From Geosiphon pyriformis uo1 (taxonomy: Eukaryota > Fungi > Glomeromycota), in NCBI GenBank assembly GCA_016748015.1, contig JAAOMT010000387.1, forward strand, positions 62,001-126,000: DNA of 64,000 nucleotides. Reading direction: 5' to 3'. The notes beneath the pieces are model-generated. The model made no database searches. It was not told the origin of the DNA and saw only the letters and a list, made by a program, of their open reading frames with translations. The translations under genes and the position numbers were made by a program. Each line of letters begins with the position of its first letter. The stretch's first letter is position 1. Shown here piece by piece: positions 2,033-64,000 of the stretch.

Positions 2033-2706
2033 TGTTACCAGAGGTTTTTGGTCTCTTTTCTTAAATGTTGTTGATGCTTGTTTGCTGTGAATTCATGTTT
2101 TCTGGATGTGGTTGAACCTCCAGTAACTGAATTTATCTTCAAATTATCTCCTATAATTTGAACTTGCTGGGCTTATGAGTGGAATGGCCAATTCCATGCC
2201 AGTTGCTTTATGTAGTTACATTGTAGTAAACGTCAACTCTTTCCCAGGAATTGCTCATCTGGAAGCTCACTAAAAATGTGTAGTTACTTTGCTGTAAAAG
2301 TCAACTCTTCTACAGGAATCTCGTCTGTAGGCTACCCCAATGATTGTAATAAGAAAATAAAAAAAAATAAAAAAAATGTAAAAGAAATAGAATTTTGTTG
2401 AGGGAAACGTTTTCTATCCAGGCCTGGAGTCACTAACAGTTTACTGAAATTGGTAGCTAATCAATTTTGAAATGTTAGTTGGGTTTTGGGGATTTTCCAA
2501 GTACAATAATTAAAGAATTTGGTTTTTCGAATTATTTGATATTTATTTCTTTTTGTGTGTATAGAAATGGTTTTTAAGAGATAAATTTAAGATAAGATAC
2601 ATTTTCTCGAAGAGAAAAGCTCTTCTTTTATACAACTTGTCGTAACACTATTCTATGAACTTGAACTTTGCTATTTTCTAAAATTTTGCTGAACTAAAGA
2701 TACATT
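2033..2706 (-). repeat. 3' LTR of A1 (runs into assembly gap)
   Basis: Matches 10466-10749 with 6 substitutions in 284 bp. Homologous to LTRs at 23229, 32729, 41596 and 55536. Confidence 0.95.
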
Positions 2707-3285
2707 NNNNNNNNNNNNNNNNNNNNNNNNNNNNNNNNNNNNNNNNNNNNNNNNNNNNNNNNNNNNNNNNNNNNNNNNNNNNNNNNNNNNNNNNNNNNNN
2801 NNNNNNNNNNNNNNNNNNNNNNNNNNNNNNNNNNNNNNNNNNNNNNNNNNNNNNNNNNNNNNNNNNNNNNNNNNNNNNNNNNNNNNNNNNNNNNNNNNNN
2901 NNNNNNNNNNNNNNNNNNNNNNNNNNNNNNNNNNNNNNNNNNNNNNNNNNNNNNNNNNNNNNNNNNNNNNNNNNNNNNNNNNNNNNNNNNNNNNNNNNNN
3001 NNNNNNNNNNNNNNNNNNNNNNNNNNNNNNNNNNNNNNNNNNNNNNNNNNNNNNNNNNNNNNNNNNNNNNNNNNNNNNNNNNNNNNNNNNNNNNNNNNNN
3101 NNNNNNNNNNNNNNNNNNNNNNNNNNNNNNNNNNNNNNNNNNNNNNNNNNNNNNNNNNNNNNNNNNNNNNNNNNNNNNNNNNNNNNNNNNNNNNNNNNNN
3201 NNNNNNNNNNNNNNNNNNNNNNNNNNNNNNNNNNNNNNNNNNNNNNNNNNNNNNNNNNNNNNNNNNNNNNNNNNNNNNNNNNNNT
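2707..3285. other. assembly gap (N run); should hold the rest of the A1 3' LTR, the PPT and ORF3
   Basis: N run whose flanks align to copy A2 on both sides. Confidence 0.95.
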
Positions 3286-3368
3286 TGGTGTATGGGTTTT
3301 TATGTTATTTTTGTTTTGTTTTTGTGAGATTGTTTCTAAATTATAAGAAAATAACTAGTAAAATTAAA

Positions 3369-6300
3369 TTAAGTGTTCAGATTGGAGGGTTGTTCAATGA
3401 CAACTATTGGTTCTAAGTTTCGGGGAATGTCTTCGGGACTGACCAAAGGGGAATGTGTACCGATTTGTGGAATTAATGGTTCAAGATTGTTTCTGGAATG
3501 ATAGTGTTTCAAACAATCTCCATGTGCAACTTTTGCTAGGATTTTGTTATCAAGTCTTAGCTTGTATGATCTATTGCTTAGGACTTCATGGATAAAGAAT
3601 AGTCCATCCCATTTATTTTCAAATTTTCCACTCTATTATTTTTCAGCTTTAGTTCTGTGTAAGAAAACTTTGTTTCCAATTTTGAATTTATTGGTGACTG
3701 AAGACAATTTGTCATCATGCCATTCTTTTTGTTGAGCTTGGGAGTGTTCAATATGGGTGGCTGCTATTCGTCGTTTTCCTTCCAATGTGCTAAGCAGAGT
3801 GTAGACTCTTCGCTGAAGCATTTCTTGGAAATTGTTTTTATTGATCGGTTGTGCTGGGTATGTTTCTACTGTAAAACTAATTGGTAACGTTGCCGTCCTT
3901 CCATAAGTTAAATCAAATGGTGTGTGTTTTGTGGTATCTTGTTTTAATATTCTATATGCTAGTAACACTGATGGGATAAAGAGATCCCATTCTTGCTCAA
4001 AATCAGTTAAGACTTTGGCTAATGACTCACACAATGTTCTGTTAAACTGTTCCACAAGTCCATTTGTTTGTGGATGGTAAGGCGAAGACAGAGATCTTTT
4101 GACATTGAATCGTTCACAAATTTCTTGTATCAGGTTGTTCACAAAGTGTGTTCCCTAATCAGATAAAAATTCAATTGGACATCCATGTCTACAAATGATG
4201 TCTTCGTTGATGAAATTTGCTACTGATTTTGTATCTGCTTGTTGAATGGCTCTGGTTTTAGGCCATTTAGTAAGATAGTCTACAGCTACTGCAATATAAC
4301 GGTTTCCTTGAGTGGTGATAGATAGTGGTCCAACTAAATCGATACCAACTCTGTCAAAAGGCTGTCCAACTTTGATTGGATTTAAAGGTTCTGTAGGGCG
4401 AGTTCCTCCTTTTCTTTGACAAACATCACAAAATTCGACATATTCATGAATGTCTTTTTTCATTCGAGGCCAAAAGTAGTATTCTAGTGTTCTTTGGGTG
4501 GTGCTATCTTTTCTGAAGTGTGCTGATGAAGAATCCGAGTGTATGTTGTATAAAATGGTCTTTTTTTCTTGTTCTTGTATTAATCTGAGTGGTTTGGTTG
4601 GGTTTTTGAAATTTCGATAATAGATAATGTTGTTGTGTAGAAAATATTGTTTGGCTTGTTGTTGTAACTGATGTTTTTCATCTGGGGACCAATCTGTTGG
4701 GATTGTTAATGTCTCCAAATATTGTTTGAGATTGTTGTAGTTTTCAGGGTTCATTGTTTGTTGTTTTGATGCTATTAATTCAATTAGGTGTTGGTTTTGT
4801 TTCTAATCTTGCCTCATCCTTGAGAGACAATCAACGTTGGTGTGGAGTTTTCCTGGTTTGTGGTGTACAATGTATTGGTAATTAGCTAAAAATCCTGTCC
4901 ATTGGGTTTGTTTTGCGTTCAGCTGGGTGTTTTTGTTTTGAAGCCATTTAAGTCCAATATTATCAGTGATAATATCAAATTCTTTGGGTCTGAGATAAAG
5001 GTTGAAGTGATGTAGGGCCCAGATTACTGCTGCGGTTTCTAATTCTGTTGCGGGGTAGTTCTTTTCGGCTGGCTTTAATGTTCTACTAGCATAAGCAATT
5101 ACTCACTCATTTCCATTGTCATCTAACTGTGATAGAATGGCACCAAAGACAGTATAAGAAGCGTCAGTTGCTAACCAGAATCAGTTGTTGAAGTTTGGGT
5201 AGGCGAGGATTGGGGCTGTTGTGAGTTTTTCCTTGAGTATCTTGAAGGCCTTTTGGTGTTCTTTTGTCCATTTGTATTTGACATTTTTCATAGTGAGCTG
5301 GTTGAGGGGTTTTGCAATTTCTGAGAATCCTTTAATGAATTTTCGGTAATAGGATGCTAATCCAATAAATCCTCTTAATTCTGTGGTATTTCGTGGAGTC
5401 TTGAAGTTTTTGACAGTACTGATTTTTCTAGGGTCTGGTTTAATTCCATCTTTGCTAACAATGTGACCAAAAAAAGCTAAACTTGTTTTTCCGAAGTAGC
5501 ATTTTTCAATGCTCAGTTTCAATCCTGCTTTTTGTAATCGTTGAAAAACTTCTCGCAGGTGAATTAAATATAGCTCAAATGATAGTGAATAAACATCAGT
5601 GTCATCAAGATAAACTATTACTGATTTCCAAAGGAGACCTTTGTAAACAACATCCATGAGTCTTTGAAATGTTGCTGGTGTATTGCATAATCCAAAAGGC
5701 ATTACATTGAACTCGTAATTTCTTCCTTGAGTGGTGAATGCTGTTTTGGGGCGGTCTTTGGGATCCATAGCAACTTGCCAGTATCCACTCTCTAAATCTA
5801 ATATTGAAAAGTATTTGGACTTTTCAAGAGCATCCAACATGTCATCAATTCGGGGAAGAGGGTAGGCATCCCCAATAGTGACACTGTTGAGTTGTCGGTA
5901 ATCAACACAAAATCGTATCTTTCCATTTTTTTTTTTAACTAGAACCACAGGTGAGGCCCATGGGCTTATTGATGGTTGAATAAGCCCATTGTTAAGCATC
6001 TGTTGTACTTCTTCTCGGATAAATTGGTGACTTTCTGGAGCAACTCAGTAGGCTTGTTTTCGCTTGGGTTTGGTATCTCCTGTATAGATTTGGTGTTGAA
6101 CCAAATCAGTTCTTCCTAAGTCATTGTTGTTTTTGGCGAAGATATCAGCAAATTCCGCAATTAGTTCTTTGAGCTGGGTCTGTTGTTGTAGTTCAAGTTG
6201 TCCCATGTTGATTTGAGATAGTTTTTCCATGACAACATGATAGTTTTCAGAGCTAGGGTTTGGGTTGATTTTCAGTAGGGAATGTCCAATAATTTCAGAG

Positions 6301-9300
6301 AAATCGGGGACTGTTTGGGGTAATTCTTGTTGAAATATATTACTGTGAATAACTCCAATTTCTAAATTATTTAATAAAATTATGGGATAATTATTGGGAT
6401 TGTAAAAAGTAACTTGGACTTTTTTTGTTTCTTCTGGAATATAAATGTTTGGGATCAAAATATTATGTTCCAAGCAGACTTGTTCATTGGATTCAAAAAT
6501 TTGTTGTGTGGTTGTTGGCTTTGTGCAAGTGTAAATTTCTGGATGTTCTCCAAAGGGTGAGATGGTAATCGGTTGTAGAAGTCTGAGAATCTGGTGGGAT
6601 TTGTTCTGTGTGTTAAGAGCTATATTAACTGGAACTGTGAATTGTCTAGTTGAACCAAAATCTTGGGTTCCTCTATCACTTTTTCCTAATTGTTCTCTTT
6701 GATTGACTAGTTGCAAATCCGAAATGTTGATTAAGGGTAGGTAAATAGCTTGGGCAATTTTTTCAGCATGTTCGATCTTGAATGGTTTGTCAGTTTCATT
6801 TTAAAGCATCACTGTTATGTCTCCAGTATATCCAGCATCGATTATTCCTTCTCTGATATTGATTCTTTTGCTTGCCAAAGAGGACCGGGAGACGATTTGA
6901 ACCATTGCTCCTGGTGGGATTTCGAGTGCAATTTTAAGATTGATTTTTGTGAGAGATTTGGGTTTGAGAACAAGAGTATCCTTGCCTGGATATCTTAGGT
7001 CATATCCAGCATCAATTTTATGTACTTTTTCGGGTTTTATTCCTTGTTCGTTGCTGTTAAAGTATTTAAGTTGTAAGGCAGGCTGATTTTCGATAAGGTA
7101 AATGGGTATTGTTTCAATTTCTTCTATTTCTTCAGGTTCTCCAAATTCAATTTCATTCTCATCATTTTCACTGGGCAAGGAAATACTAAGAGCATAGCAT
7201 TCAGGACACCACTGTTTATCACAAGGCATAATGCATTCTTCACATAGCCTAATGTTCATTTGCTCTAATCATTGAATTTGAGCTTCTTGGGTCGGGTAGG
7301 TGTAACTTACAATTTGGTGGTAGACTTCTACTTCATCTTTGTAATCAAATCCAGCTAATTCCATAGTGTATTCAATGTATTCTGCTTTTTTCATTTGACA
7401 AACATCTTCTTTGGTAGCTCCATTAATTAATGCTATTGCTAAGTTAAAAATTATCTCGGCATCATAAGGGTAGTAATAAAGTTTGTTGAGAGCACTGTTG
7501 TATGCTGCATTAAAGGGTGTTCCTCTTTTTACTTTTTCTGAAATTGATAAAGCATATTGGCAGGTCTGATCATAGACGCCTCCTCTTATTGCTACATCAA
7601 TCCAATTGTATTCTTCTGGTAGCATATCCCCACAAGTCAAACAAGGAGTGTTGTCCCATTTTCCACTCCTTTTTATTAGATGGCCCTATCGCTCTCTGTG
7701 GCAAGCCTTGCAGTAATAACAAGTATGATTCTCATATTTTTCTTCAGGTAAAATGCAGGCTCCCATTGACAATAGTTTCTTGTGACAGTCCTTACATTTA
7801 AGGGGAATATAGAGGCGTTGTTTCCTTGGTTCGGGTTTTAAGTAAGGTATATTGCATCCAGAAGTTTCAGGTTTAGTGTGTGGGGTAAAATGTTCTTGTT
7901 CTGTTTCATCAGCCCAGTTGGATGTTGATCCAAGAGCCATGAATGTTTCGATTATTGGTTTTTTTTCTTCTGGTTCAAATTCAAAAGCCGGGGCTTTTTC
8001 AGAGCGTTTGTTGAATGTACCACAAATGGCAGGTACCCAGGCATGTTGTCCTTGGTAGGAGATTGTTAACTCTTGTGTTTCCCAGTTCAGATTAGCATTG
8101 GCTTTTTGAAGCCAATCATTTCTGACAAGGGCTTGGTACTGGGGTGCATCCATTACAAGAACTTTGACTGGAATGGTGATTCCATCAAGAGTGAATGGAA
8201 AATTGTCAATTTCTCCTACTGGTGTCTTTTTCATGCCATCGGCAGTGATGATTACTGTTTGAGCTGGTCGGTCGACATTTCTTTTCAACTGTTGCATTAA
8301 CTGGTAGGTAATAATGCTTCCGGCAGATCTACTGTCTAGGATCAAGCGAATTGGCTTTCCTTTTACTTCAGCTTCTGTGTACATTGCAGTGATGGCTTTT
8401 TGTTCATTAGCCACTGCATTGCTAAGCAAGAATGGTGATTCATTTGCTTCAAATTCAAAAGGAAAGATATCAGAGAGATTGGCGTTTTCAGCAATTCGGG
8501 CTGGTGGAATAGTAATGTGATTATGAGAAGGGTTTTGTTGTTGTTGTGCTGCAGCTCTACCTTCCAAAAGTGTAGTATGGTGAAAATTCTGTTCTTTTGG
8601 CATTGTTAAATAACTGGGTTGAGTGTGGTAGTGGTTGGGTCTTGGTTGAGTGAAATTTTGGAGAACCAATTGGTTATTTGGACTGATTCTATTGTTGTTT
8701 ACTTGGTATTGGTTTTGTGGTGTGAATTGATTTTGTGTAATCAGTCTTCAAGCAGGTACTTGATAATGTTGTGTGGGTGGTTATTGGTATTGCTGTTGGA
8801 TTGGTTGTGGGGCGGGCTGATAATAGTTATTTTGGTACTAGGATCTTGGTGGATAGTAAGCTGATGGTGATGGTTGATAATAAGATTGCTGTGGTGGAGA
8901 GTAACATTGATTACCCCTGTTTTGTTGGTCTTGCTGTAGCTTTCTGCAATCTTTTTTCCAGTGGCCAGAGATTTCACAGTAATGGCAATTCTGGGGCTGG
9001 TTATTTGAAAATGGTGCAAAGTTATTTTGATTTTGTCTTTGGGGTGGTTGATATCTTTGGGGTTGTTGTTGTTGTTGGTTGGTAAAATAGTTTTCGATCT
9101 TCTTTGTGAGTTGGTCAATTTTTTTCTTAGCTGCTGAGCTGGTTTCTCTAATTGCCAAATTTACAAGTTTTGTACGATTGGCCTCTTTCATGGCCATTTC
9201 GTATCTTTTCGCATGCTGGATGGCAGAGTTTAAATCTTCTGGCGCGTGTGGGCGAACCTTTTTAATTAGTTTATCTTTTAGACCAGCAAATTGATCCAAG

Positions 9301-10421
9301 ATTTGAGCATCGGAATAATAATCGTTTGTCTCGAGTTGGCGAATCTATCTGAGAAGTTTGTTGAATTTCCCAATATAAGTCATAACGGATTCGGAGGGTT
9401 CTTGTTTGATATTTCGAAAACGATTGTGAAGAGTAATAGAGGTATTATTGTCAGTGAACTGTTCAAGGAAGGCTGTTTTGAAAGCATTCCAATCATTGAA
9501 TAGGGCAGCAAGGTTTTCAAACCATTCTTCTGCTGTTTCTTTGAGAAAGTAGGGAATTGTTCTTAACATTCTGGCAGTGTTCCATCCATTTGCATCTCCA
9601 GCTTTAGTAACTTGGTCGAGTCATTCTTGGGGACTGGTCTCAATATCTTCTCCATTGAATTCAGGGATTTTTGCGATGTATGTTGTCATTTCGTTTTCTT
9701 CGTTTTTACTGTCTATTGATTCTTCTTCGGTTATTTCAGAGTTGTTTTCTTTGTTTGCTGCTGTCTCAGAGTGTTCACTTTGATTTTTAGCTAGAAAATC
9801 AAGGAGATTGGAACTAGTTTGAAGGGGTTCTTGTTGTCTGGTAGGACTTCTGAGTGATGTAAAATCTTCTGGTCTTGCAAATCGATTCAAGAGTGAATTA
9901 GGTGTTTGTGCTTGTACAAGTGAGGCTGGAAAAGGTGTGATAGTAAGTGGAAGTTTTGAACTGGTTCCTTGTTCAGGTGTTTGTAAATGTTTAGCAGTTG
10001 TTTTCGGTAGTGTTGGAGTATTTGGGGTGGTTCTTGAATATTGCTTTAATTTGTTTTTGCCTTTGTTGCTTGTTTCTGTTTCCGATTCAAAATTAATAGT
10101 GTATTGAGACTGCACTGGATATGTTTCTTCACAGTATTTGATAATGTTATAATTAAGTTCGTGAAAGTAAGTGGCAAGTGTTTCACTATTAAGGTCTTCA
10201 GTTCCCAACTGTGAATAGTGTGCTAAATTATTGTAAAGGTTGCTTCTAACTTCTGAGATATTGTAATTTCCAAAAAGATAATTGTTGATGCGGTTTTCAA
10301 TGTATTGGTATACTGATTTCTTGACAATTTCAATTCCGTCTGGAATGTTGAATCTTTGCTTGCAGTGGGTGTAAATTGATTGGTAATACTCTAGAGTTGT
10401 TGTGTCTGGTGTGGTCGCCAC
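3369..10421 (-). pseudogene. A1 single-frame Gag-Pol polyprotein (~2350 aa): N-extension, Gag, CCHC, protease, Cys-rich domain, dUTPase, RT, RNase H, integrase; nonsense-disrupted
   Basis: Ten ORF fragments (starts 10451, 9569, 9299, 8669, 7640, 7259, 6716, 5999, 4754, 4142) are all in one frame. Motifs: CHYCEISGHWKKDC, LILDSRSAGS, DAGYDL/SRSSLA/GIIDAGYTG/KIAQ/RGTQDFGST, PWASPVVLVKKK, YLDD, H-H-CDVC, GIDLVGP, YHPQTNGLVE, KWDG. At least 12 in-frame stops. Confidence 0.95.
6640..7077 (-). pseudogene. dUTPase domain in A1 pol (between protease and RT)
   Basis: All five trimeric-dUTPase motifs in order: DAGYDL, SRSSLA, GIIDAGYTG, KIAQAI, SDRGTQDFGST (GFGSTG in A2). Confidence 0.93.
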
Positions 10422-10450
10422 TTTGAGTTGTTTTTGCTGTGTTGTTTCCA

Positions 10451-10463
10451 TGGGAGAGCACCA
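10451..10463 (-). promoter_or_regulatory. primer binding site of A1 (TGGTGCTCTCCCA)
   Basis: Starts 2 nt after the LTR end with TGG (complement of tRNA CCA). Same core in A2 (41581-41593) and family B (51466-51480). tRNA identity not determined. Confidence 0.85.
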
Positions 10464-10465
10464 AA

Positions 10466-11068
10466 TGTTACCGGAGGTTTTTGGTCTCTTTTCTTAAATG
10501 TTGTTGATGCTTGTTTGCTGTGAATTCATGTTTTCTGGATGTGGTTGAACCTCCAGTAACTGAATTTATCTTCAAATTATCTCCTATAATTTGAACTTGC
10601 TGGGCTTATGAGTGGAATGGCCAATTCCGTGCCAGTTGCTTTATGTAGTTACGTTGTAGTAAACGTCAACTTTTTCCCAGGAATTGCTCGTCTGGAAGCT
10701 CACTAAAAATGTGTAGTTACTTTGCTGTGAAAGTCAACTCTTCTACAGGNNNNNNNNNNNNNNNNNNNNNNNNNNNNNNNNNNNNNNGAACTATTAGATA
10801 TTTCGGTGAACTATCAATTATTTCAGCGAATTTCTACAAATTTCGGCGAACTTCTGAATGTTACATAGTTCAGGGTATTGCATGATTGATCATCGCAATT
10901 AGGTTACATTTGTGTTGTGTACAATTTGGGTTATTAATTAAATGATAATTTCGGACATTTTTGCTAATGTAATAAGTGATCATTTGAAATGATAATATAT
11001 GCTAATTAATGATAGGAATTATAAGATAATTTCATGCTAAATAATATCTCTAATTTCGTCTGGTAACA
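10466..11068 (-). repeat. 5' LTR of A1 (contains gap 10750-10787)
   Basis: Homologous to the 3' LTR and to the A2 LTRs; adjacent to the PBS. Confidence 0.95.
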
Positions 11069-15724: not shown

Positions 15725-16440
15725 ATTTTAGTATTTCTTTAGTGCAAGCTAGTAAGAGATTCAGAGTTTCGAGAATTGATTAAATTTACCAAAAAATATC
15801 AGTCATTGAATACTTTTAAATACTTGTCCATCATTGACTCAGATTAGTCAACCAAATAAGGTTAATTGCAAAAATAACATTTTTGGTAGATATTACACCA
15901 GTAATATGAGATATAAAGAATAAGCACAGCATGAATAAACGATTAAAATTCATTAAACTACTGCATCAAGGAATTCACATAAATAAATAATTAAATTACT
16001 GTTTTATAATAAAAAAATAATAAAAATATTATAATTTTGAAAATATTTTTAAGTTTAAATTTTCTGTTTTTAAAATTAAAAAGTAGAAAAATTAATAATT
16101 AAAATGCATTCTTTTATAATTTTTGAGATATTTTATTAAACAATAGAATTTTATTTTGATTTTATATTATATAATTAAAAAAAATTAATTTAAAAATACA
16201 TGGTATTTGAGTATTTTATTAAATTTTAACAATTTATAACACATGTTTTAAAAATTGCTAAACTTTACCAATATAATTTTTAAATATAATTAGAATAATA
16301 AATTTATTATTGGTATTATTAATTAAAATCTAAAACCAAAAACATCTTAAAAATACTTTGAATTTCTATTATTAAATTTAACATTATATTATTTAATATT
16401 TTGGTTATTTAATATTTGAATTATTTTATATTTAAAATAG

Positions 16441-16441
<1 letters not shown>

Positions 16442-16494
<53 letters not shown>
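16442..16494. repeat. (TTA)n microsatellite
   Basis: About 17 tandem TTA units. Confidence 0.95.
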
Positions 16495-17530
16495 TTAAAA
16501 TTTAGTTTTTTATTGTTTAATAAAATATAATCCAATTATAAATATAATTAAATATAAAAATTAATTATAAAAATTATTAATTTAAATATTGTACAAGTTA
16601 TAATAATTAAAATAAATACTTTTTTTTATTGTTTTAATAAAGTATAATCTTTTTATTAGCTATATTAATTACATTAAAATTACTATACTTATAAATTATG
16701 TATTTTTAATATATAATTAATTATTTAGACTTAAGCTAATAAATATTTATTTATTTTTTAAACCAAAAATATTTAATGTTTTAATTTTATTAAAGTAATT
16801 TATAAATATAATTATATATTTATTTTCCTGTTATTTTTTTATAAAAATTTTTTTGCTATAATCTATATATATTGTAATTTATCTAAAAAAATAAGTCTTA
16901 TACTTATTTTTATATTAATTAAAACTTTTAAACACAATATTAAATACTTAAAAAATATTAATTAATTTAAATCTTAAAAACATAAAATAACTTTTAATAT
17001 TTATAAAAATTATTTTTTAACAGTTACCAAAAAAAGAACCAAATTTACCAAAAATTAATTTTCTTAATTATAAAATTCATTAATTTTGATTTTAATTTAA
17101 CTATTTTATTAATAACAACAAAAAAACAATAGTTTTAATACAAAACACTAAATTAACAAATTAATTTTAGATATTAAAAAATAGTTTAAAAAACCAAATA
17201 ATTTAAATCTTATTATCTGTAATAATATTAATATTTAAAAGTTTTTTACTAATATATAATACTTTTATAAAATATTAGTTTTAATAATAGTATTATTAAG
17301 AACTTTTTTAAACTTAAAGATAATAACAACAAATTTTTAACAATAATTGAATTTAGAAAATTAAGAAATAAAACAAGTCTAATTACTAATTTTAAAAACA
17401 GTACAACCAAAAAAACTAACTTAAAATTTACAATAATGTATTAATACAATTTATTAGGCTTTAATATAATACTAAAAACTTTACTAAAAATCTTTAAAAT
17501 TTTGCTTTTTATAAATATATTAAATATTAA

Positions 17531-18270: not shown

Positions 18271-18694
18271 TAAATAAGTATTATTTGTGTTTACTAAAAC
18301 TGAATAACTTATATATAACTCTAAATTGAAAATTGAAAATTTATATTTTTTATATAATTATTAATTAAAGCTTAAACAAAATCAATAATTTTAGTTAATA
18401 CCAAATTAAAAAATTTAAAAAATTTAAAATTTTTTATATTATTTTTTAAAATTCAAACTTTTATTAGCAACTATATATTGTATTATTTTTTTGATTAAAA
18501 GTAAATACTATAATATTAAAGAACTAATAATTAAAATCTATATATATAAACTTTATTTTTAATAAAATTATTTATAATTAAATTTTTTTTAGCTGTATTT
18601 AATATGTAAACAAAAAAGTAATTTAATATTTTTATTTTTTTATACTAAATACTTAATTTATTGTAATAATTCTTTTATTATTATTATTATTAAC

Positions 18695-19532
18695 TGGGAT
18701 GCCACTTCGAAAGTATGGCACCCTGATTTGCATATGCTTGCTGGGTCTACCAGTTGGAAGTCTTCTGTTTTACGTTCGTATTTGATGAAAGCTGTACACC
18801 GACGGCTTCTGGTGGCAGTTAGAAAAAGATTGTATAATAAGAGTTATCCTGGTGTGCAATGTTTGCTTTGTGGTGAGGTGAAGCTGCCTAATCATGCTTT
18901 TTCATGTGCATTAGATGTTGGTATCCAGGAGAAAATTCTGGCTGAGGCCTCTGCTTCATGGATCTCTTTGGTGGAGGTTAGTTCTTTGTCTTTTTCTGCT
19001 GTTTTGCAGTTCCTTAGTCTTTGCTCCTCAGATATTGGTCTATACTTGGTTGTGTGTAAAGAGTTTATTATAAAAGACTGGTATGCAGAAGCTGTTGGAG
19101 TTTTTAAAGATAAAAAAGAGGCTGTGGGGATTGTCATCAATTATGTGAGATGTTTTATTAAGTTACATCATTCTAGAATTTGGCTGGTAAGGTCTAAACA
19201 TAGAGTGGATATGGAGAGGGCTGGTTTGGTTGGTGATGGTAGATTGGTGTCAGGTCTTACACAGTGTGCAGTGCAAATGTTGTCAAATGGTGTTGCTAAC
19301 TCCTTTGCAGTTAGCTTTGGTCATTGTAAGTCTTGTCTTTTCTTTTCTGGATTGAATTATAATCCATGTGTTGTTATAGATGTATAGTGGTGTCTTGTTT
19401 GGCCCAAGTGGCTGGCCACATGTAGCAAATGTGTAAACCACATTTAGTTTGAGCCTCTTAGTTTGGCTCTATGTACTAAATAGTGGTTGGGCTTCACTTG
19501 TTAAATGCATTTAATAAAAAAATAAATAAAAA
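18695..19532 (+). mobile_element. 5'-truncated LINE (ORF2 C-terminus with zinc finger, 3' UTR, poly-A)
   Basis: ORF 18728-19387 (WHPD..; CLLCGEV..HAFSC). 3' UTR motif at 19400-19425. Candidate 12-bp TSD ATTATTATTAAC at 18683-18694 and 19533-19544 (low complexity). Confidence 0.9.
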
Positions 19533-19815
19533 ATTATTATTAACAATTTATTATAAAAAGGTTTAATAAAATACATATGTAAATTTACAAATTTATAATT
19601 TATAAACTTATAAAATAATTTAATTACATATTAAGTATTTTTTAATATTATAATATATTATGTTTTAATAAATTATTATTTTTATTTATATTAATAAAAT
19701 TAAAATAAACACCTATGATGAAAGCATAGTTTTTGCTAATAGAATAGCTTTTCCTTTTCCCTTTTCTCTTTTTTTTTCTTCAGTTATTTCTCTCAATACG
19801 CCCCTTTTTGTTGCC

Positions 19816-21768
19816 ATGGAACCGGTGAGTTTGTCTACTGGTGGTTCTGGTTCTGAATTGACTGGGTTGGGGACCCCAGTCTGGCACCAAAAAAAAGGCA
19901 CAAGTTGAAAGTGTCTACTCTTGTGGTCTGTTGTATAAGAAACCTAGAAAACCTGAGGTCACTGGTGGAGTTGTGGATTTGTCTGCTGGCCCTCTGTCTG
20001 CTGCTTTGTTATATTTGGGCGATGAAGAATATAAGGTATCTTGGGGAAGTGAAGTTAAAAACAACAAGTCAAGCATAAGTGGGGTGTTGGATGTAAAGAA
20101 TATGACAAACACTATTGCCAAAGAAACAAGTTATGCAGAATCTGGTGAAGACAATGAAATGAACAAGACTATGCCAAGAAAAACCTGGACCCGTACTTAT
20201 ATGCTAGGCAAACCTCCAAAAGCTCCAACGTTTGACTCCATGAGTGATGATGAGAATGCACTAAGTCTTCCGTCTTTAAAATGTTTAATGGCTCCAATCA
20301 GATGCTGTCTGTCAAGTTACATGTTATGGAAAAGTGAAGCTTCGAACCAGTAAAGTCATTCACTTTAGATGTAGAATTGTCTACTGTGCCTGGAAATACT
20401 AATAGTGATAAGCTCATTTCAATCAAAAAATTTTTTTATAAAATCGATGGTTTTGGGGGAGTTTCAACTCCCTCAAAATTTCCTGGTGTTATTTGTTTAA
20501 CTTTCACAAGTGAGTCTAGTTTGATTAAGGCCAGAAAAATGGCAGTCCATAAGAAAATTGTTGTCAATGGTGATCTCAAAAAAGCAAACATTCATTTGAA
20601 TTGGGAAGTGGTCATTAAGGAGATCCCAGTGGATCTTCCAAAGGTGGCTGTGGAATCAGTTTTTTCTAAATTTGGCAAGATTGTTTCTACTAGGATGCAA
20701 TTGATTAGTCTTTGGCAAAAGGCCCGGATTGAATTTGAGTCATCAGAAGTTGCCAGTTTGGTCACTTCTAAGTGGTCTGTTCTTGTGGGAAAAGATTCAG
20801 TTTGCATAGTGCTGGCTGTTAGTGATAAACAAATGTGGGTATCTAGAGATTAACATTGGGTTATGCTTTATACTTTGCCTGTGGGTACTTCTGCTTATGA
20901 TTTGTCTGATTTGTTGATGTCATATGGTGGGAAGACTTGTTTTATTGGCCGCAATTCCAGTTTATATGTCCACAATTGATGTGCAATCATTTGTTTTGAA
21001 AATGAAGCTGCCAGATTGGCTGCTGTTTATATCATTCCAATTTTCAAGGGTGTTAGTTTGTATTGGACTAGTCTTGTTTTGGCTAGTTGTGCCAAGTGTA
21101 AACAATTTGGTCATATCATTGTCAACTATTCTGTGGGTGGAAGTTCTGGTATTTGTGGAAAAAAGGTAGTTTCTGATCATGATAGGGTTCACTTAACTGG
21201 TATATATAAGAAGAAATTGGCTTCTATTGTCCATCTGGTTTCGTTTGATGGCAAGACATAGGCTCAAGTTGCTAGTGGCACCCCCTCCCATGTGTTTTAT
21301 TCTGGTTTTTTTGGTTCTGGTTTGCGTTCTGGTTTGGTTCCTCCTTCAGCTGTCTCTAATTCTCTTGTTGTTTCCCATTTGGGTGATCATTTGGCAGTTT
21401 TGGAGTGCTCTTTGGAGCTTTTGGCTGATTGTGTTTCTGGCATCCTGGTTAGGTTGGATTCTTTTGGTATGGTTTCTTCAGTTCTTTCTTCTCTGGCCTT
21501 CTCTTCTGTTGTATCTGCAGCTTTGGGTTCTGGGGTGGATTTAGATATGATTGTGGACAATGCTTCAGGTTTTCTTGATATTACCTCCCCTGTTACTGAT
21601 GATACTGTTGTCAATCTCAGTGCTAGTAGTTCCAAGGTTCTTACTGCCAAGGTGGGCAGTTTGGAGACAAAATTGGTCGCTTTGGAAGCTTTAGTTGATT
21701 CAGTTTTAGATAAGTTGAATTTTTTGTGCTCTGGTTTGGGTTTGTTAACTCCCACAGTTTCTCAATGA
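19816..21768 (+). pseudogene. LINE L-b ORF1 (RRM domains + CCHC knuckle), disrupted
   Basis: ATG at 19816. RRM-like VVIKEIPVDL..VFSKFGKIVS..ARIEF; second RRM LYTLPVGT..CAIICFENE; CAKCKQFGH; C-terminal coiled-coil-like LETKLVALEA. Confidence 0.8.
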
Positions 21769-24700
21769 CTCATTTAATTTGGAAGATTGCAACATGCAAT
21801 GTCAGAGATATGAACAATTGTGCAAAGCAAGCAGACATTGTTTGTTGGCATAAGGATATAAACAATCTGGTCTCTATTGTTACTAAAACAAAGTTGTGGA
21901 GAAAAGTTTGCCTTTAGATTGCTGATAGGTTTGATGGTGTTCATGTTTTTACTTCTGGTTTGGATTCTGGTCACATGGGATCTGGTGTTGCTATTATTTT
22001 GAACTCTTTATTGGCAAGACATGTGTGCAAGATTTTGAAGATGCCTGGTCAGCTCTTGTTGGTGAGGCTGCTTTTTAAGAACAAGCTTTCTGTGTCAATT
22101 CTGGGGCTGTATGCTGGCGCTTCTTTGGTGGTTTGTTTCTCTTAGGCTGGTGATATCAACTCTTTCATTGCTAAAGCGGTAAATGAATCTTTCTTCTTCA
22201 TTTTTGGTGGTGATTTCAATGAGAACGGTTCTCACAAATGTGCCAGTTTCAAAAAGTGTTTTGATTTGGATTTGGTTAACTCTTTGAGTAGGAGTTTGTT
22301 TGTGAAATCTCTGACTTGGTGCAATTCTTGTGGTGTTGCAAAGATGATTGACTATGTTTTTGTCTTCTCTAATTTGATTAACACAGTTGTGGATTGCAGT
22401 GTGGCTGGTATTAATAACTTTTTTGATACTGATTATAGGGCTGTTTCTGTGTCTGTGAGTATAGGTAGATTGTTGGATGTGCAGCTTTCTTTATTGTGTA
22501 AACAGACCACCAGGGATTGTTGGAAATTTGACATCAAAAATGCCAATAGAGCTAAGTGATTGGAGTTCAAGAACACTTTGGCTGCTAATGTCTCTATGTT
22601 TTCAGATGCATTTGGTACTGCTGTGAAATTTTCTGATATAGATGCTATGTAGGATATTGTTCACAAGATCATGATTCTTTCTGCAGATGGTACATTTAAA
22701 AGAAAGTGGTTCAAGAGTTTTGATGGCATTTTCATTAAGATGTCTTTTAGGTTTCATAAGCTAGAATTGCTGGTTTCAAAGTTGATCAAGACTTTACGTT
22801 TGGTTTCTAGTGAAGAGTTTGTTGCTTTGTTGGAGGTGTGGCACAGGCTTAATTCTCCTGGTACATCAGTGGTAAAATCTCTGTTTTTTTTAGGTTCTGG
22901 TTTTGATCTTATTTGTTCTGTGCTGGCCAAAGCGAAGAAGTTTTACCGTGCTTCTAAGTTGTTGGAATCCAAATGTGCTGAAAAATCTTCGATCAGGCAG
23001 GCTATTAGTAAGAGGATAGAAAGTTTTGAACTGGACAAGGGTCACACTATTAAGAGTGTTTTGGAGCGTCCCTTTCACAAGGTGGTCTTGGATCATCTGG
23101 TTATGGAAAATGAGTTGATTTTGAAGCCTAACTCTGTCAAATCGAAGGTGGACGAAATTATGGAAGGGTGGACCAGGAAGCGTAGAGTGGTTTCTAATAT
23201 CTCCAAAGATTAGGCTCACCAATATTGGTGTTACCAGACGAAATTAGAGATATTGTTTAACATGAAATTACTCTTATAAATCTTATCATTAATTAGCATA
23301 TATTATCATTTCAAATTATTACTTATTACATTAGCAAAATGTCTGAAATTATCATTTAATTAATAATCCAATTTGTACATAACACAAATGTAACCTAAGT
23401 GTAATAATCAATCATACAATACCCCAAAATATGTAACATTCAAAAGTTTGCCGAAATTTGTAGAAATTCACTGAAATAATTGATAGTTCACTGAAATATC
23501 TAATAGTTCACAGAAATAACTTATAGTTTGCCAAAATGTATCTGTAGTTCAGCAAAATTGTAAAAAAGAGCAAAGTTCAAGTTCATAGAATAGTGTTATG
23601 ACAAGTTGTATAAAAGAAGAGCTTCTCTCTTCAAGAAAATGTATCTTACTTTAGATTTATCACTTAGAACCATTCCTACACACACAAAAAGAAATAAATA
23701 TCAAATAATTTGAAAAAAACCAAATTTTTTAATTATTGCACTTGGAAAATCCTCAAAACCCAACTAACATTTTAAAATTGATTAGTTACTAATTTCAGTA
23801 AACTGTTAGTGACTCCAGGCCTGGATAGAAAACATTTCCCTTGATAAAATCCTATTTCTTTTACATTTCTTTTATTTTTCTTTTCTTTTCTTATTATAAT
23901 CATTAGGATAGCCTACAGACGAGATTTCTGTAGAAAAGTTGACTTTTGCAGCAAAGTAACTACACATTTTTTAGTAAGCTTCCAGACAAGCAATTTCTGG
24001 GAAAGAGTTAATGTTTACTACAATGTAACTACATAAAGTAACTGGCAAGGAATTGGCCATTCCATTTATAAGCCCAGTAGTTCAAATTATAAGAGATAAT
24101 TTGAAGATAAATTCAGTTATTGGAGGTTCAAACACTTCCCATAATTGTGAATTAACAGCATTACAACAAACATACAAGAGCTAAGAAGAGACCAAAAACC
24201 TCCAGTAACATCGGCCTTTAGAGTATGTTTTTGATGGTGCTTTTTCTGGTGTCATGTGTCCGATTAGTTTTGATGAAATGTCAGCAGTCGTCAAGGATTT
24301 TCTTGATAGAAAGGCGGCTAGTCTCTCTGGTATTTCTAACGAATTGTGAAAGTGTTGTGACAAATCAGTTTTGGATATGCTTTTAGTGCTCTTGAACCTG
24401 TGTTTAATTAGTGAGTCAGTTCCTGGATCTTGGAAAAAAGCTTGGGTTTCTATGATCCCTAAACTGTATAAATAGAAGAGAGTTCTTATGAACACTTATC
24501 CTATTGCTTTGATTGAAACGGCCTGCAAAATTCTTTCCAAGATTCTTTCAGATAGGATTTCTTCGGTTTGCAGCACTTTTGATGTCCTTCGCAGAAACAA
24601 TTTTTCAGTTCTAAAAAATACAACAACCCAGTCTCCCATTTTTGCTGTTGGTTCAGTGATTGAAGATGCCCTGGAGAAAAACCGAGAACTCTGGTTGGTT

Positions 24701-27439
24701 TTGCAAGACATGTGTAAGGCTTATGACTCAGTTGGTTGGAAACATCTCAGAAGAAGTCTGGTCAGGATTAAGATATGTGAGAAGTTTATTAGATTTTTTG
24801 GTAGCATTCACAATGGTCATCTTAACAGAGTGATGACTGACTTTGGCCTAACTGATGGATATTGTGTTTATGATGGGCTGGACCAAGGAGAAGTTTTCTT
24901 TTCTCTTCTCTGGCATATATTCTATGATTCACTCTTGTGTAAAGTCAAAAGACAGAATAGTGTGTATAGCTATAAGTTGAATTCTTATTTTATATCCAAA
25001 ACTGGCTGGGTGGATCCTCAAGCTGGGCTGTCTTCATTTTTTGCTGCTGGTGCTTTTGTCGATAATACTATTTGGGTTGGTAGCAGCCAGGCTGTTACAC
25101 AATACATCCTTGATATTGCTAGTAAGTTTTTCAAGTTTAACAATATTTCTGTAAATAACAACAAAACGGTGGCCATCCCTATCAATTGCCAGGTGTTGAA
25201 TCCTCATTTGACTATCAATGGTGCACCTATTTCTATTGCCAAGAAAGAAGAATCTCATCATTATCTAGGCATTTTTTTATTTTCTAAAGGTCTTTCAAAG
25301 CCCAGCTTAGCTAAAGCCCAGATAGATGTATGGTTTTTTGTGAATCTAGTTTTAAGAAAGGCAGTTTCTGATAAACAGTGTGCGTATTTGGTGTTCACAG
25401 TTCTTTTTTCCATCATCAGCTATAGAACTCAGTTCAGTTTTGTTTTTGTGGGTGTTTGTAACAAATGGGATGCTCTAGTACGCAAAATCTTGAAATCTAA
25501 GTCTGAGTTGCCCCGTGATTTCCCCAATGATGTACTGCACCACTCCTCATTGTATGGTTTAAAGACTTTTGAGCAGATTCAGGCTAAAAGTAAATTGGCA
25601 TCTGCTGTTATTTTTGCAAATTCTGCTGGTATTTTGGGTCGCCTTTTTTTTCATAGGTCTCATGATCTTCAAGTTTTCAGCTGGCGCCCGCATCATTCTT
25701 TGCTGTTTTTATTTCATATTGGTGTCAATTCCTTGAACAATTTTTTGGCTGGTGTGGTTCATATTTTTTCCAGATGTGATTTGTCTTTGGGTGGCTCTTT
25801 GGCTTGTGCTTTTTGCCATCAGTGCAGTATTCCTATGTTTTTGGTTCTTGGTAAACTCTGTTTTTTCAGATGTGTCTCTTCACTCAGACATTATGGAATT
25901 GCTTTTGTGGAACAGCTTTATGACCATAATGGTAATGTTTTCAGTTGGAGAGCCTTTAAGCATTGGAAGAGGCTAGACTCTCATGGCCCAATCCCTTTCT
26001 GGTTTGATCTCTCCATTCGCTTTCTTGGTGGTGTTGGTCCCCTCTCCTTAAGTTCTTCTTTGGTGGATGGTCATGCTGTATCAGATATTCGTCTCTTTCA
26101 TGATTTTAGTGTGATTTGTGACACTCTGCTGACTGCTGATGCTGCCCACCTTTTTGTGTATATGGATGGGTCTCTGTCTGGTCTGAGCACTGTTGACATG
26201 AAAGCAGATACTGCTGTTTTTTTTGAAGACATTAACTTGGGTTTGGGGGTGGGGGTGTTTGGTTTGGTTTCTTTTACTCTAATGGAGCTGCAAGCCATAG
26301 CTTTGGCTCTTGAGTGTGTTCCTTCTTCTTGTTCAATTGACTTGTTTTCAGATAGCCAAGCTGTTTTGGATGCATATAGATCAAAGTTTTTGCTGGTTCA
26401 TCCGGATTTCAGGAACCACTGTTGAATTGAGCATCACCACATTGCTACCATTATTCATCAAAAGAATTTGGATGTGAATTGGGTTAAGGTAAAAGATCAT
26501 TCAAATGTCTCAGGCAATGAGCATGCTGATGCATTTGCCAAAAATGCTGCTTTCTCTGTTTGGCATCTGCCTCATTTAGTTAGTGAACATTTTCTGTGCA
26601 CTGGTAGTATGGCAGTTTTTGGTAATTCTAAACACTTTGTTCATGATATTTTCCAATCAGTTTATCATGCTCATTGGGAGATTGGAGTTGGTTCTCATGT
26701 TGTGGCTAATAGTTTGCATGCTGATGTTAATTGGTTTAAGTCTTCTATGGTATGGCACACCAATTTTTACTTGGCCTCCAGTTTCATAAGCATGTGCATG
26801 GTGAGCTGTCACACTTACTTTATGAAAGCTTTTTATTATCAGCTTTCTGTTGCTGTGTGCAAGCATTTATATGATAGGAGATACTCCAGTGTGGTCTGTC
26901 TGTTCTGTGGTAATGTTGAGTTCTCAGATCACGTTTTTTCATGTCCTCAGGATGCTGCAGACTGTGCTCGTTTGTTGGACACTTATGCTTCAGCTTGGAA
27001 GGCTCTTTTTGGTTTATTTTGCTCTTCTTTATGTGTTTTACAGGTGTTGGCTTCTTGTATTTCTGAGGTTGAAATTGGTGTTGCTCTGTGTAAAGACTTT
27101 GTTTTCGATGACTGGTTTCAGGAGTCTGTCTTGGTTTTTAAAGATTCTAAGGAGAGTACTAAAAGGATTGTGGGCTTTGTGCGTGAGTTTTGTCTTGTAT
27201 TTTGGAATGATATTTGGTTGGTTCATGCCAAACACCAGGCATTTATGAAGAGGCATGGTTTAATTCCATGTGATGGGTCCATTTTCATGTTAATTTCTGG
27301 TTTGTTTGTGGCATTTTTGGCTGGTGTGATTAGGCTGTTGGGTATTGCTAAAGCTTTTGGAGTTAGTTTTGGGTTTTGCAAGCTTTGTTTATTCTTTTCG
27401 GGTATTGAGAACACAGTCTCTGTGCATATAGGTGTGTAG
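21765..27439 (+). pseudogene. LINE L-b ORF2 (AP endonuclease, RT, RNase H, zinc finger), split by solo LTR 23229-24210
   Basis: IATCNVR, GSGVAI, GGDFNE, IDYVF, TDYRAV (APE); PIALIET, QDMCKAYDSV, GLDQGE, AFVDN (RT); YMDGS, MELQAI, FSDSQ, KVKDH..GNEHAD (RNase H); CLFC..DHVFSC. Confidence 0.92.
23229..24210 (+). mobile_element. solo LTR of Gypsy family A (982 bp)
   Basis: TGTTA...TAACA termini. TSD TTGG (23225-28) / TCGG (24211-14). LINE reads HQYRPLEY when the LTR is removed. TATAAA near 23608, AATAAA near 23693. Confidence 0.95.
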
Positions 27440-30400: not shown

Positions 30401-32728
30401 ATTTCTATATGTCTTCTGTTTAAAAATAAGCTTTTAGTTTCAGTTTTGGGTTTTTATACTGGTGTATTCATTGGTATTTATTTTGGCCAAGCTGCTAATA
30501 TCAGCTTTATGATATCTAAGGTGATCAATTCTAGCTTTTTTGTGGTCTTAGGTGGTGACTTTAATGAAAATAGGTCCAAAAAAAGTGCTAGTTTCAAGTT
30601 TTGCTTAAATTTGAGTCTGGTCAATACTTTTAATAAATATGTATTGACCAAAGTTCTTACTTGGGACAATTCTAGGGGCATCAAAAGAGTTATAGATTTT
30701 ATTTTTGTAAGTAAGAACTTAGTGTTTGCAATTGCATCACATAGAGTCAATGATATGTTTAGGTTTTTTGATACAGATTATAAGTCAGTTTCAGTTTCAA
30801 TTAGTTTGGGTGAACTTCTGAATGCTTGTCTTATCAGTGCTTGTAAGCAGACCAACTAAGACCAGTGAAAGTTCAAGTTGGAAAATGTTGACAAAGTTCA
30901 GTGGTTGCATTTCAAAGAGTGTTCTTCCACTGTGTTGTTGGCCAAATTAAACATATTTGAGGTTGCAAAAGACAATAGTAACTTAAATATAATGTAGAAT
31001 TTGTTAGAGGAAGCCATAGTACAAGCTACTACTAGAGTGTTTTCTAAGAACTGGTATAGTGAATATGATTGTTCAAGAAACAAACAATTGTCGAAATTTT
31101 ATAAGTTGAAGCTGCTCATTGCTAAGATTGTGAAATGCTGGAATTTTAAAGATCTTCTGAATTTTGACTGTCTTGTTAAAGTTTGAACATTTATTGATGT
31201 TGTTGAAGTGTCTAAGATTATTAGCATGGTTTCAGATAGTGTTGGTTCAAGAGATTTGGTTAGGTATTTGTCAGTAGTAAGGAAGAAATATCATAAGTTT
31301 AAGTATTATGAATTAAAATTGGCTAAAAATGCTAATATTAGGAAGGCTATTAACTAACATATGGGAAATTTCTGCTCTGATAAGAGATAGATAATAAAAA
31401 GCATTTTGGAACACTCATTTCACAAGATTGTTTTGGATTATTTAGTAGTAAACAATATAATGGTAGTGGAATCTAAGAAGGTAAAGCTTAAGGTTAATGA
31501 GATCATAGAAGAGTGAACAAAAAAGCAGTCAGTGCTCCCAAAGATGTCTAATCTATGGTCTTGTTAATATATGCCTCTGAATTATATAGATAATGATGCC
31601 TTCTTTGATGTGATAAAAAAAATTAACATGGAGAAATTGTCTTTAACTATTAGTAATTTATCTAATGATAAAGCTGCTGGTTTGTCTGGGATTCCTAATA
31701 AACTTTGAAATCATTGTGGTAGAGAAGTGCTGACTTGTCTTTTGAAGCTGCTAAATACTTGTTTAGCATTGAGTATGGTTCTAATCTCTTGGAAGAGAAC
31801 ATGAGTGTCAATGATTCCTAAACTTTATGAATAGAATAGTGTTTTAATGAACACTAGGCTTATTGCTTTGGTTGAAACAGTCTGGAAAATCTTATTAAAA
31901 ATCTTTTCTGATTGAATATCTTTAGCTTGCAGTAAATTTGATGTTTTTTGTGGTAATAACTTTTTGGTGTTGAAAGAACTTCAATCTAGTCTTCTATTTT
32001 TGCCATTGGATTAATTGTAGAGGATGCTTTGAAGAAAAATAGAGAGCTCTGGCTGGTGTTATAAGATATGCACAAAGCTTATAATTTGGTAGGCTAGCAT
32101 TATTTAAAGGCTAGCTTGCATCATATCAAAATGTGTGATCAGTTTATTAGGTTCTTTAGTAACATTTATGAAAACAGATTTAATAGGGTGATGACAGATT
32201 TTAAACTTTCAAATAATTATAGAGTGCATGATAGTTTGAATCAAGATAAGGTCTTTTCTCTACTCCTCTGAAAAATTTTCTATGATCCATTTTTGTGTGA
32301 GGTTAAGAGACATAAGCACTTATGCAAATACAGAATTGATACTAAGTTTGTGACAAGATCTGGCAGGATTGAAACAATTGATGGGAAAACTTTTTTTTTG
32401 GCTGTTAATGCCTTTGTTGATAATATAATTTGGGTTGAAAATTGCCAGACTTCCATACAATATATTCTAAATATTGCTAATAAATTTTTTATGGTCAATG
32501 ACATTTTAATAAACAATAATAAGATGGTGGCTATACTTATCAATTAGGGTGTTAAGTCTGCTTTACTGTTAATTAATAGTTTACCAATTTCAATTGCCAA
32601 AAGAAGTGAAGCACACAGATACTTGGGCATTTTTTTGTCTATTAAAGGTTTCTCCAAGCTTAGTTTGGTTCAGGCTCATCTGGATGTTAGGTTTTTCTCT
32701 AATGTGGTATTAAAAAAAGCTATTATGA

Positions 32729-34402: not shown

Positions 34403-34524
34403 TATAAGAGATTTGAAAATAAAAGAAATTTATTTTTGATGTATGGGTTTTTATGTTATTTTTGCTTTGTTTTTGTAAGATTGTTTCTAAATTATAAGGA
34501 GATAACTATAATAATAAATTTAAG

Positions 34525-41595: not shown

Positions 41596-42573
41596 TGTTA
41601 CTGGAGGTTTTTGGTCTCTTCTTAGCTCTTGTATGTTTGTTGTAATGCTGTTAACTTACGACTATGGGAAGTGTTTGAACCTCCAATAACTGAATTTTTA
41701 TCTTCAAATTATCTCCTATAATTTGAACTACTGGGCTTATAAGTGGAATGGCCAATTCTGTGCCAGTTGCTTTGTGTAGTTACATTGTAGTAAATGTCAA
41801 CTCTTTCCCAAGAATTGCTCATCTGAAAGCTCACTAAAAATGTGTAGTTATTTTGCTGTGAAAGTCAACTCTTCAACAGGAATCTTGTCTGTAGGCTACC
41901 CTAATAATTATAATAAGAAAATAAAAGAAAAAAAATAAAAGAAATGTAAAAGAAATAGAATTCTGTCAAGGGAAACGTTTTCTATTCAGGCCTGGAGTCA
42001 CTAACAGTTTACTGAAATTGGTAGCTAATCAATTTCAAAATGTTAGTTGGGTTTTGGGGATTTTTCAAGTGCAATAATTAAAGAATTTGGTTTTTCAAAT
42101 TATTTGATATTTATTTCATTTTTGTGTGTAAAGAATAATTGTTAAATCTGAAGTAAGATATATTTTCTTGAAAAGAGAAGCTCTTCTTTTATACAACTTG
42201 TTGTAACACTATTTTATGAACTTGAACTTTGCTCTTTTCTACAATTTTGCTGAACTAAAGATACATTTCGGCAAATTACAAGTTATTTCTGCAAACTATT
42301 AGATATTTTGGTAAACTATCAATTATTTCAGCAAATTTCTACAAATTTCGGCAAACTTTTGAATGTTACATATTTCGGGGTATTGCATAATTGATCATTG
42401 CAATTAGGTTACATTTGTGTTATGTACAAATTGGGTTATTAATTAAATGATAATTTCGGATATTTTGCTAATGTAATAAGTGATAATTTGAAACGATAAT
42501 ATATGCTAATTAATAATAGGAATTATAAAGATAATTTCATGCTAAATAATATTTTTAATTTCGTTTGGTAACA
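41596..42573 (-). repeat. 5' LTR of A2
   Basis: 978-bp direct repeat adjacent to the PBS. Confidence 0.95.
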
Positions 42574-63300: not shown

Positions 63301-64000
63301 TTTTAACTCTGCTATAAACTGATTCAGAATTTGAGCATCAGAATAGTAGTCATTGGTTTCCAATTGTTGAATTCGTCTGAGAAGTTTGTTAAATCTTCCA
63401 AAATAGGTCATAACAGTTTCAGATGTTTCTTATTTGATATTGCGAAAGTGGTTTCTGAGAGTAATAGAGGTATTGTTGTCAGTAAATTGTTGTAGAAAAG
63501 CATCTTTGAATGCTTGCCAGTTTTCAAATGGTTCTTCTAAGTTTTCAAACCATTCTCCTGCTGTTCCTTGGAGAAAGTAGGGAATTGCTTTGAGCATTCT
63601 TGCTGCAATTCAACCATTTGCATCTTCTGTTTTTTGAACTTTGTCAAGCCATTCTTGAGAGCTGGTATTATTGTCTTCACCAGTGAATTCTGGGATTTTT
63701 GCAATGTAAGCAGTTGCCATTTCTTTTTTGTTTTCTGTAATTTTTTCTGGTTCTGATTTAGTTTCTTCACTTTCTAAGCTGTCTGAGTGATTACTTTCAT
63801 TTTTCTGTAAGTAATCAATAATATTGGCACTTGTTGATATTGGTTCCTGTTGTTGAGTAGAATTTTTAGGTAACTAAAAATCTTCTGGTCTGAAGAAACG
63901 GTTAAGTGGTGAACTTGGTATTTGTAGTTAAACAAGTAAAATTAAAAATAGTGTAATAGAAAGTGGTAATTTAACACTGGTTCCTTGTTCAGGTGTTTGC
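57374..64000 (-). pseudogene. A3 Gag-Pol polyprotein (partial), disrupted
   Basis: Fragments from 63411 to 59241 share one frame, with one net frameshift before 57973. Motifs LILDSG, DTEYDL/GGIIDAEYTG, WASPVVLVKKK, LATDAS. Confidence 0.92.

Follow-up and report, generated by a model that had tools for sequence, protein, structure and literature searches.

A Ty3/Gypsy retrotransposon of the fungus Geosiphon pyriformis was found to carry an open stretch of 244 codons, free of ATG, directly in front of its capsid region, and the comparison of copies and gene models indicates that this stretch is very probably translated. The extension would begin at a conserved GUG codon, and the ribosomes passing this codon would reach the capsid AUG by leaky scanning. 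We put the probability of the whole scheme (a coding extension that starts at the GUG, and a capsid AUG reached by leaky scanning) at roughly 0.6.

The window, meaning the whole stretch of 64,000 nucleotides that was analysed, contains three decayed copies of the element on the minus strand (A1, A2 and A3) and one solo LTR. The coordinates are collected in Table 1. The LTRs are about 980 bp long and have TG...CA termini, a 4-bp duplication flanks each of A1, A2 and the solo LTR, and the identity of the LTR pairs is 97.9% and 92.2%. An 18-mer resembling a primer-binding site lies 2 nt past the LTR and a purine tract directly precedes the 3' LTR; an 18-nt primer-binding site and a polypurine tract are hallmarks of Ty3/Gypsy elements (Metaviridae) (PMC7879559). 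The Pfam families follow one another as PF03732, PF19259, PF00098, PF13650, PF00078, PF17919 (partial, below the cut-off) and PF17921, and the domain order of capsid, zinc knuckle, protease, dUTPase, reverse transcriptase (RT), RNase H (part) and integrase is that of Ty3/Gypsy. By its LTRs, the 18-mer, the purine tract and the Pfam order, the element is a Ty3/Gypsy LTR retrotransposon. The gag and pol ORF pieces of A1 share one frame, which is interrupted by stops alone.

Table 1. Features of the element in the window (positions of the whole stretch)
Feature	Position	Strand	Remarks
Copy A1	2033-11068	-	LTR-bounded
A1 5' LTR	10466..11068	-	N gap 10750-10787; ends TGTTACC...GGTAACA; 4-bp target-site duplication
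A1 PBS-like 18-mer	10446..10463	-	starts TGG; contains the A1 ATG 10451-49
A1 A/C-rich spacer	10422..10445	-	length varies among copies and subfamilies
A1 GTG, proposed weak start codon	10419..10421	-	context AAA-GTG-GC; putative start
A1 extension, 244 codons	GTG 10421-19 to capsid Met 9689	-	stop-free, ATG-free, 732 nt
A1 N-terminal domain, ~105 codons	10107..10421	-	12% Tyr; predicted four-helix bundle
A1 linker	9690..10106	-	Ser/Thr/Pro- and acid-rich; fast-evolving; indels in frame
A1 capsid-head ATG	9687..9689	-	first ATG after the gap; in frame
A1 gag-pol	3636..9689	-	one reading frame with in-frame stops; ORF pieces and Pfam domains
A1 3' LTR, visible part	2033..2706	-	remainder in N gap 2707-3284
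Copy A2	about 32728-42573	-	LTR-bounded
A2 5' LTR	41596..42573	-	TATA-like box near 42195-42188
A2 extension, 244 codons	40819..41550	-	GTG 41550-48 in context AAA-GTG-GC; single out-of-frame ATG 40874-72; capsid ATG 40818-16
Copy A3 (diverged)	from about 55536 to beyond the window	-	cut by the window end
A3 linker, 3' part, and capsid ATG	63718..64000	-	capsid ATG 63720-18; single ATG 63800-798 in visible part

The tests at the DNA level used the three copies and six LTRs. The contigs of sequencing run X1 served as a record of DNA variation, their depth not being a copy count, while runs X2 and X3 scarcely cover the stretch. The related gene models number 398; at least 120 among the matches listed, and all of these, belong to Geosiphon pyriformis, and all matches listed in two further homologue searches were gene models of the same species, which points to this fungus as the most likely host.

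Several other features of the window were recorded. The dUTPase lies between the protease and RT (7685-6045, minus strand) and is preceded by a Cys-rich segment without a Pfam match. A sense ORF of ~235 codons follows the integrase (A2 about 34400-33712, A3 about 57240-56531, minus strand) and continues across the polypurine tract as far as the 3' LTR, which it enters; two pieces of it were scanned and gave no Pfam family. A different repeat, present in many decayed copies that are 64-72% alike and carry RT-like ORFs, occupies 8-2060, 18593-31000, 42569-45000 and 48000-55537; this repeat may be LINE-like, and the LTR elements are inserted into its copies. Very AT-rich stretches (9-14% GC) were seen at 16000-17000 and 45000-49000, and a unit of ~87 bp is tandemly repeated at 51590-52167.

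The first-pass annotation had reported no ATG on the sense strand of A1 between 10448 and 9690 and a single one each in A2 and in as much of A3 as is visible, together with a frame open for 244 codons from the GTG to the capsid Met in A1 and A2. The recount agreed on every point. The number of ATGs expected by chance had been put at about 10; it was computed as 8.4 from base composition and 6.8 from dinucleotide shuffles, and the shortfall against chance stood. None of 1000 dinucleotide shuffles of A1 was as low. Among 20,000 shuffles, no stop-free frame exceeded 171 codons, compared with the 244 seen. The element bodies carry 18-19 ATGs per kb, and their 759-nt windows (113-128 per copy) hold 13-14 on average. 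The p-values for the lack of ATG are somewhat overstated because the window was chosen post hoc and the copies are related; despite this choice, no body window holds fewer than 2-3 ATGs.

The loss concerns ATG and not its neighbours. The share of ATG among TG dinucleotides is 0/23 in the A1 extension and 1/27 in that of A2, as against 121/345, 133/376 and 128/363 in the bodies (Fisher p=1.1e-4 for A1), while CTG, GTG and TTG occur in the extension near their usual rates and the CpG observed/expected ratio is alike inside and outside. Codons for Tyr, His, Asn and Asp standing before G end in T in none of 4 cases in the A1 extension and in 52 of 59 downstream (p=5.5e-4). From the capsid Met onward, the next 300 nt contain 9-10 ATGs in A1 and A2. 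At the protein level, Met accounts for 25 of 54,282 aligned residues in the extension and for 523 of 39,964 downstream (261 related, non-independent proteins), and no extension column of the family gene models has Met as a common residue. When the protein was held fixed and synonymous codons were resampled from a pool that included the extension itself, the lack of out-of-frame ATGs was not significant (p 0.06 and 0.43); shuffling of the codon order gave p 0.002 and 0.016. The ATG-free open stretch is a real feature, and the loss of ATG in it is specific.

The dN/dS ratio, which the first-pass annotation had named as a check on the extension, was weak or neutral among the copies (0.6-1.0). Between A1 and A2 it was 0.62 (0.91 for codons 1-120 and 0.50 for codons 121-244), and against A3, over 90 linker codons, 1.01-1.03; the capsid, protease, dUTPase, RT and integrase gave 0.21-0.47. 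The divergence of A1 from A2 in codons 1-120 is ~6% at both classes of sites (pS 0.065), which is about the decay expected from the LTR pairs, and the comparison therefore holds little signal. Direct dN/dS is the weakest evidence on the coding of the extension. The indels among ten representative models are in frame and confined to the linker, except for a gap of 9 residues in one model, and the A3 DNA has one 15-nt gap. The two stops in the A3 linker stand at columns with Gln in the gene models. It should be noted that gene models are stop-free by construction, so counts of stops and indels are biased; taken alone, the lack of stops between subfamilies says little (P 0.05-0.23).

Comparison of the subfamilies says more about the N-terminal domain. 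Of the 111 columns of this domain, 27 set subfamily C (16 models) apart from the rest and 45 set apart subfamily F (5 models, 1-5 per column), which amounts to 24-41%. The mean BLOSUM62 score of these changes is +0.52 for C and +0.36 for F, compared with -0.31 to -0.49 under neutral mutation (p 0.001-0.007), and changes from hydrophobic to polar residues number 2 and 4 where 5.5 and 9.7 are expected (p 0.01-0.05). In an earlier form of the BLOSUM test, five of six comparisons had p 0.06-0.63 and one had 0.008, and a narrower version with subfamily A alone as the reference gave p 0.06. In eight mosaic models (P0151, P0154, P0155, P0206, P0236, P0255, P0257 and P0258) the N-terminal domain comes from a subfamily other than that of the first residues, linker or capsid, suggesting recombination between subfamilies.

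The Tyr-rich N-terminal domain and the linker rich in Ser, Thr, Pro and acidic residues, both proposed earlier, were confirmed in composition. Structure prediction, another of the suggested checks, was run for this domain with AlphaFold. The first model, built with 33 similar sequences, had a pLDDT of 52; with 55 sequences four helices were obtained at a pLDDT of 85.9 and a pTM of 0.78, the rise from 52 to 86 being due to the addition of the divergent subfamilies. According to this model, the extension likely encodes a folded four-helix domain. The fold libraries returned no match to either AlphaFold model: the best hit, a designed protein, reached Z 7.2 (rmsd 3.0, 97 aligned residues), and none of 48,161 chains had Z>=8. 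The Pfam scan of the extension gave nothing meaningful (best E 0.02). A search of 1.84 billion proteins gave 72 matches, and all ten that were looked up were from Geosiphon; the sister family described below fell short of E 0.001 there. In two metagenome scans, none of 593 and none of 83 pattern matches was confirmed.

The chimeric gene model P0180 includes a segment of a distant sister family, which aligns over the full domain (E 3.6e-5, 216 proteins). This segment starts K-V-A-T, and a Met follows 293 residues later, at a capsid-like region. The V follows a gene-model junction and speaks for the residue, not for a particular codon. Inside the extension of this one sequence are two Met residues, which are perhaps, but not certainly, products of decay. 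Pieces of other Geosiphon Gypsy families were also seen in P0180 (residues 1023-1330) and in the N-terminal parts of P0009, P0086 and P0092; P0180 and P0009 have a long low-complexity stretch ending in Met right before the capsid motif.

For the position of the GTG (position 1), 199 of 216 gene models could be anchored and 17 were dropped. Of the 173 models reaching upstream of this point, 159 have Val at position 1, 4 have Met and 1 has Ile, and 18 further models begin exactly there. Variants with Met outnumber those with Ile, as expected for a GTG codon, and the GTG itself was seen directly in A1, A2 and the loose ends of run X1 contigs. The five residues preceding the GTG have FK as their last two in 144 of the 173 models and are TTTSK-like in 9, eight of which are among the 14 models of subfamily C. 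Back-translation implies a 1-nt shift directly before the GTG between subfamilies: the NNFK-like and TTTSK-like residues come from the same bases read one step off frame, which would place the beginning of frame conservation at the GTG. In A1, no further near-cognate codon occurs in frame before position 16, which falls within a near-invariant block beginning at position 9. The public gene models enter the frame from many unrelated upstream ATGs, as expected without a shared AUG. On these grounds, the extension probably starts at this GUG. In fungi, GUG is an inefficient start codon.

The length of the spacer upstream of the GTG varies between copies and subfamilies, and its frame is therefore not conserved. 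The open frame extends upstream of the GTG by 24 codons in A1 and by 35 in A2, in different frames owing to a 1-nt indel. A start inside the 35 codons of A2 was rejected, their frame not being common to subfamily C. The ATG at 10451-49, which adjoins the boundary of the ATG count (10448), is in frame in A1; A2 has ACA at this site, in another frame. In the run X1 contigs, the middle base of the site is C in 61% of the depth and the third base is A in 35%. This ATG is likely a product of CpG decay of ACG. As a true start it was rejected on the two-sided CpG decay pattern and on its being in frame through a minority spacer length alone. The ATG at 10529 was likewise rejected, as the sisters have GTG there in 95% of the depth and a stop follows at 10496-94 in A1.

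The statement that every ATG in R/U5 is ACG in a sister LTR proved too broad: this applies to five of the nine ATG columns downstream of the TATA box. Of the other four, one is ACA/ATA, one is a private insertion, one is GTG (10529) and one is ATG/ATA. The column ~30 nt past the TATA box has ATG in 3 of the 5 LTRs covering it, ATA in 2 and ACG in none. The proposal of an ancestral leader of ~1.3 kb without any ATG thus held for eight of nine columns and failed for the ATG ~30 nt past the TATA box. This ATG lies near the expected transcription start, and our guess is that it may fall outside the transcript or lie too near the cap to be used. Among the six LTRs, the end of U5 (10536-10490 compared with 41668-41620) takes three or more forms of equal length that look unrelated. 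No stable hairpin was found near the GTG or the ATG, and five 140-nt stretches showed no RNA structure beyond that of shuffles (z 0.17-1.63).

The Met at the capsid head is present in 162 of 183 models, with Ile in 20, and it persists even where one subfamily has it a residue away from its place in another. Since gag and pol share one frame in A1, the products would be Gag-Pol polyproteins. Transcription would begin from the LTR TATA box and ribosomes would scan through ~1.3 kb of leader. Inefficient initiation at the GUG would yield a long Gag-Pol as the minority isoform, while most ribosomes would pass the GUG and scan on to the capsid AUG to make the short form. The helical domain of the long form, which occupies the position of the retroviral matrix, may be a minor particle component for targeting or packaging; this role is our guess. 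If the GUG were the sole start, later ATGs would be nearly harmless, yet they are absent up to the capsid Met, and the simplest reading of this is that the stretch is both translated and scanned. The comparative evidence thus favours the two isoforms of the first-pass annotation, and we infer, with the odds leaning towards it, that both starts are used on one RNA. It is a more tentative idea, rated somewhat below even odds, that a fungal Gypsy clade, with sister families whose N-terminal domain can barely be aligned, possesses an undescribed four-helix Gag domain made from a conserved GUG alone, the leakiness of which fixes the ratio of domain-bearing to plain capsid.

The frame conservation that starts exactly at the GTG would also be produced by splicing, if the AAG before TGGCG acted as a 3' splice site and an exon ending in A supplied or created an AUG, the unspliced RNA being scanned to the capsid AUG. 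Four of the 173 gene models do have an exon junction at this point, with RPKTS ahead of the V, but the upstream exons and starts of the gene models are varied and none is common. The A/C-rich stretch lacks both a pyrimidine tract and a CTAAC-like branch site, and in A1 and A2 alike a CAG stands 15-16 nt upstream of the GTG. AAG splice acceptors are rare. We consider splicing improbable. Hardly more probable is a long Gag-Pol alone, with the GUG, another near-cognate codon (positions 16-41 include several ATT codons in frame) or internal entry as the sole start, and with the capsid-head Met being structural or part of a cleavage site. The protease could cut the single gag-pol frame between the linker and the capsid; however, such a scheme gives no account of why out-of-frame ATGs are absent up to, and only to, the capsid Met, and of why this Met is kept despite the one-residue shift.

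The weak dN/dS and the low pS of codons 1-120 would fit an untranslated role as well, namely a scanned 5' leader or packaging RNA in which the open frame is a relic of a once-coding domain, and any scanned leader is expected to avoid AUG. The low divergence of A1 and A2 is, however, also that of decay after insertion, as judged from the LTR pairs, and the subfamilies look mosaic. The conservative substitutions across subfamilies speak against a relic, as do the in-frame indels of the ten representatives and the A3 DNA next to an upstream spacer that shifts frame, and the five stretches tested are no more structured than shuffles. We regard such a leader as unlikely. Still less credit is given to two transcripts, with the long form made from the full-length RNA and the capsid-start form from an RNA of internal start. 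The precedent is Ty1 p22, made from the internally initiated Ty1i RNA (PMC5408680), but the long form would still require a non-AUG start, and 732 nt free of ATG would be unneeded unless the internal start lay near the GTG. Leaky scanning from the GUG to the capsid AUG is the reading that we prefer.

Among known systems, Ty1 is likewise a single retrotransposon with a long and a short form of Gag; it is a Copia-type element, and its short form p22 is a truncated Gag translated from AUG starts on the separate internal RNA. The retroviral matrix protein (MA) is described as helical and N-terminal to the capsid, with a spacer between (PMC6525542), and the likeness to the extension is in position alone, MA giving no structural match among the fold-library matches listed. 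Position 2 of the extension is Ala in 70, Val in 33 and Thr in 5 of 108 models; with Ala as residue 2, the glycine for myristoylation is absent. An N-terminal Gly for myristoylation is found in many but not all MA proteins. The Neurospora gene cpc-1 has an open, AUG-free, in-frame extension of >700 nt read from near-cognate codons (PMC5487733), so long non-AUG extensions are feasible in filamentous fungi; unlike the present element, cpc-1 encodes a host transcription factor and has uORFs and several near-cognate starts.

The closest parallels are MLV glyco-Gag and PEG10. Glyco-Gag (gPr80) starts at an upstream in-frame near-cognate codon on the same unspliced RNA (PMC3042739), a pattern that is matched here at the level of sequence. 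Its 88 added residues provide a signal peptide and ER entry, whereas no hydrophobic segment was found in the extension (maximal 19-residue hydropathy 0.52 in A1 and 0.72 in A2); the analogy drawn in the first-pass annotation thus applies to the start mechanism and not to a signal or membrane segment. The mammalian retrotransposon-derived gag gene PEG10 uses both an in-frame CUG and an AUG to make long and short Gag-like proteins (PMC2800197), and the arrangement of an upstream near-cognate start and an AUG would be the same here. In PEG10, a domesticated gene, the extension has 34 residues and there is a -1 frameshift; the present element is multi-copy (398 related models, three LTR-bounded copies), with a GUG, 244 residues that include a predicted folded domain, and a single gag-pol frame throughout A1. 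With no signal segment, no frameshift and no domestication, it belongs to neither the PEG10 nor the glyco-Gag family.

In the open-access literature searched, the titles and abstract openings named no self-replicating LTR retrotransposon with such starts, nor this family. If correct, the scheme adds a folded Gag domain without a detected relative outside this genome, and it explains why the public gene models of the family start at many unrelated, decay-derived ATGs. LTR sequence makes up 41.2% of the Geosiphon genome (PMC11952901). Long and short Gag forms made through a near-cognate start are already known from a gammaretrovirus and from the domesticated PEG10; the scheme, if true, would mean that the same strategy occurs in ordinary Gypsy elements of a fungus.
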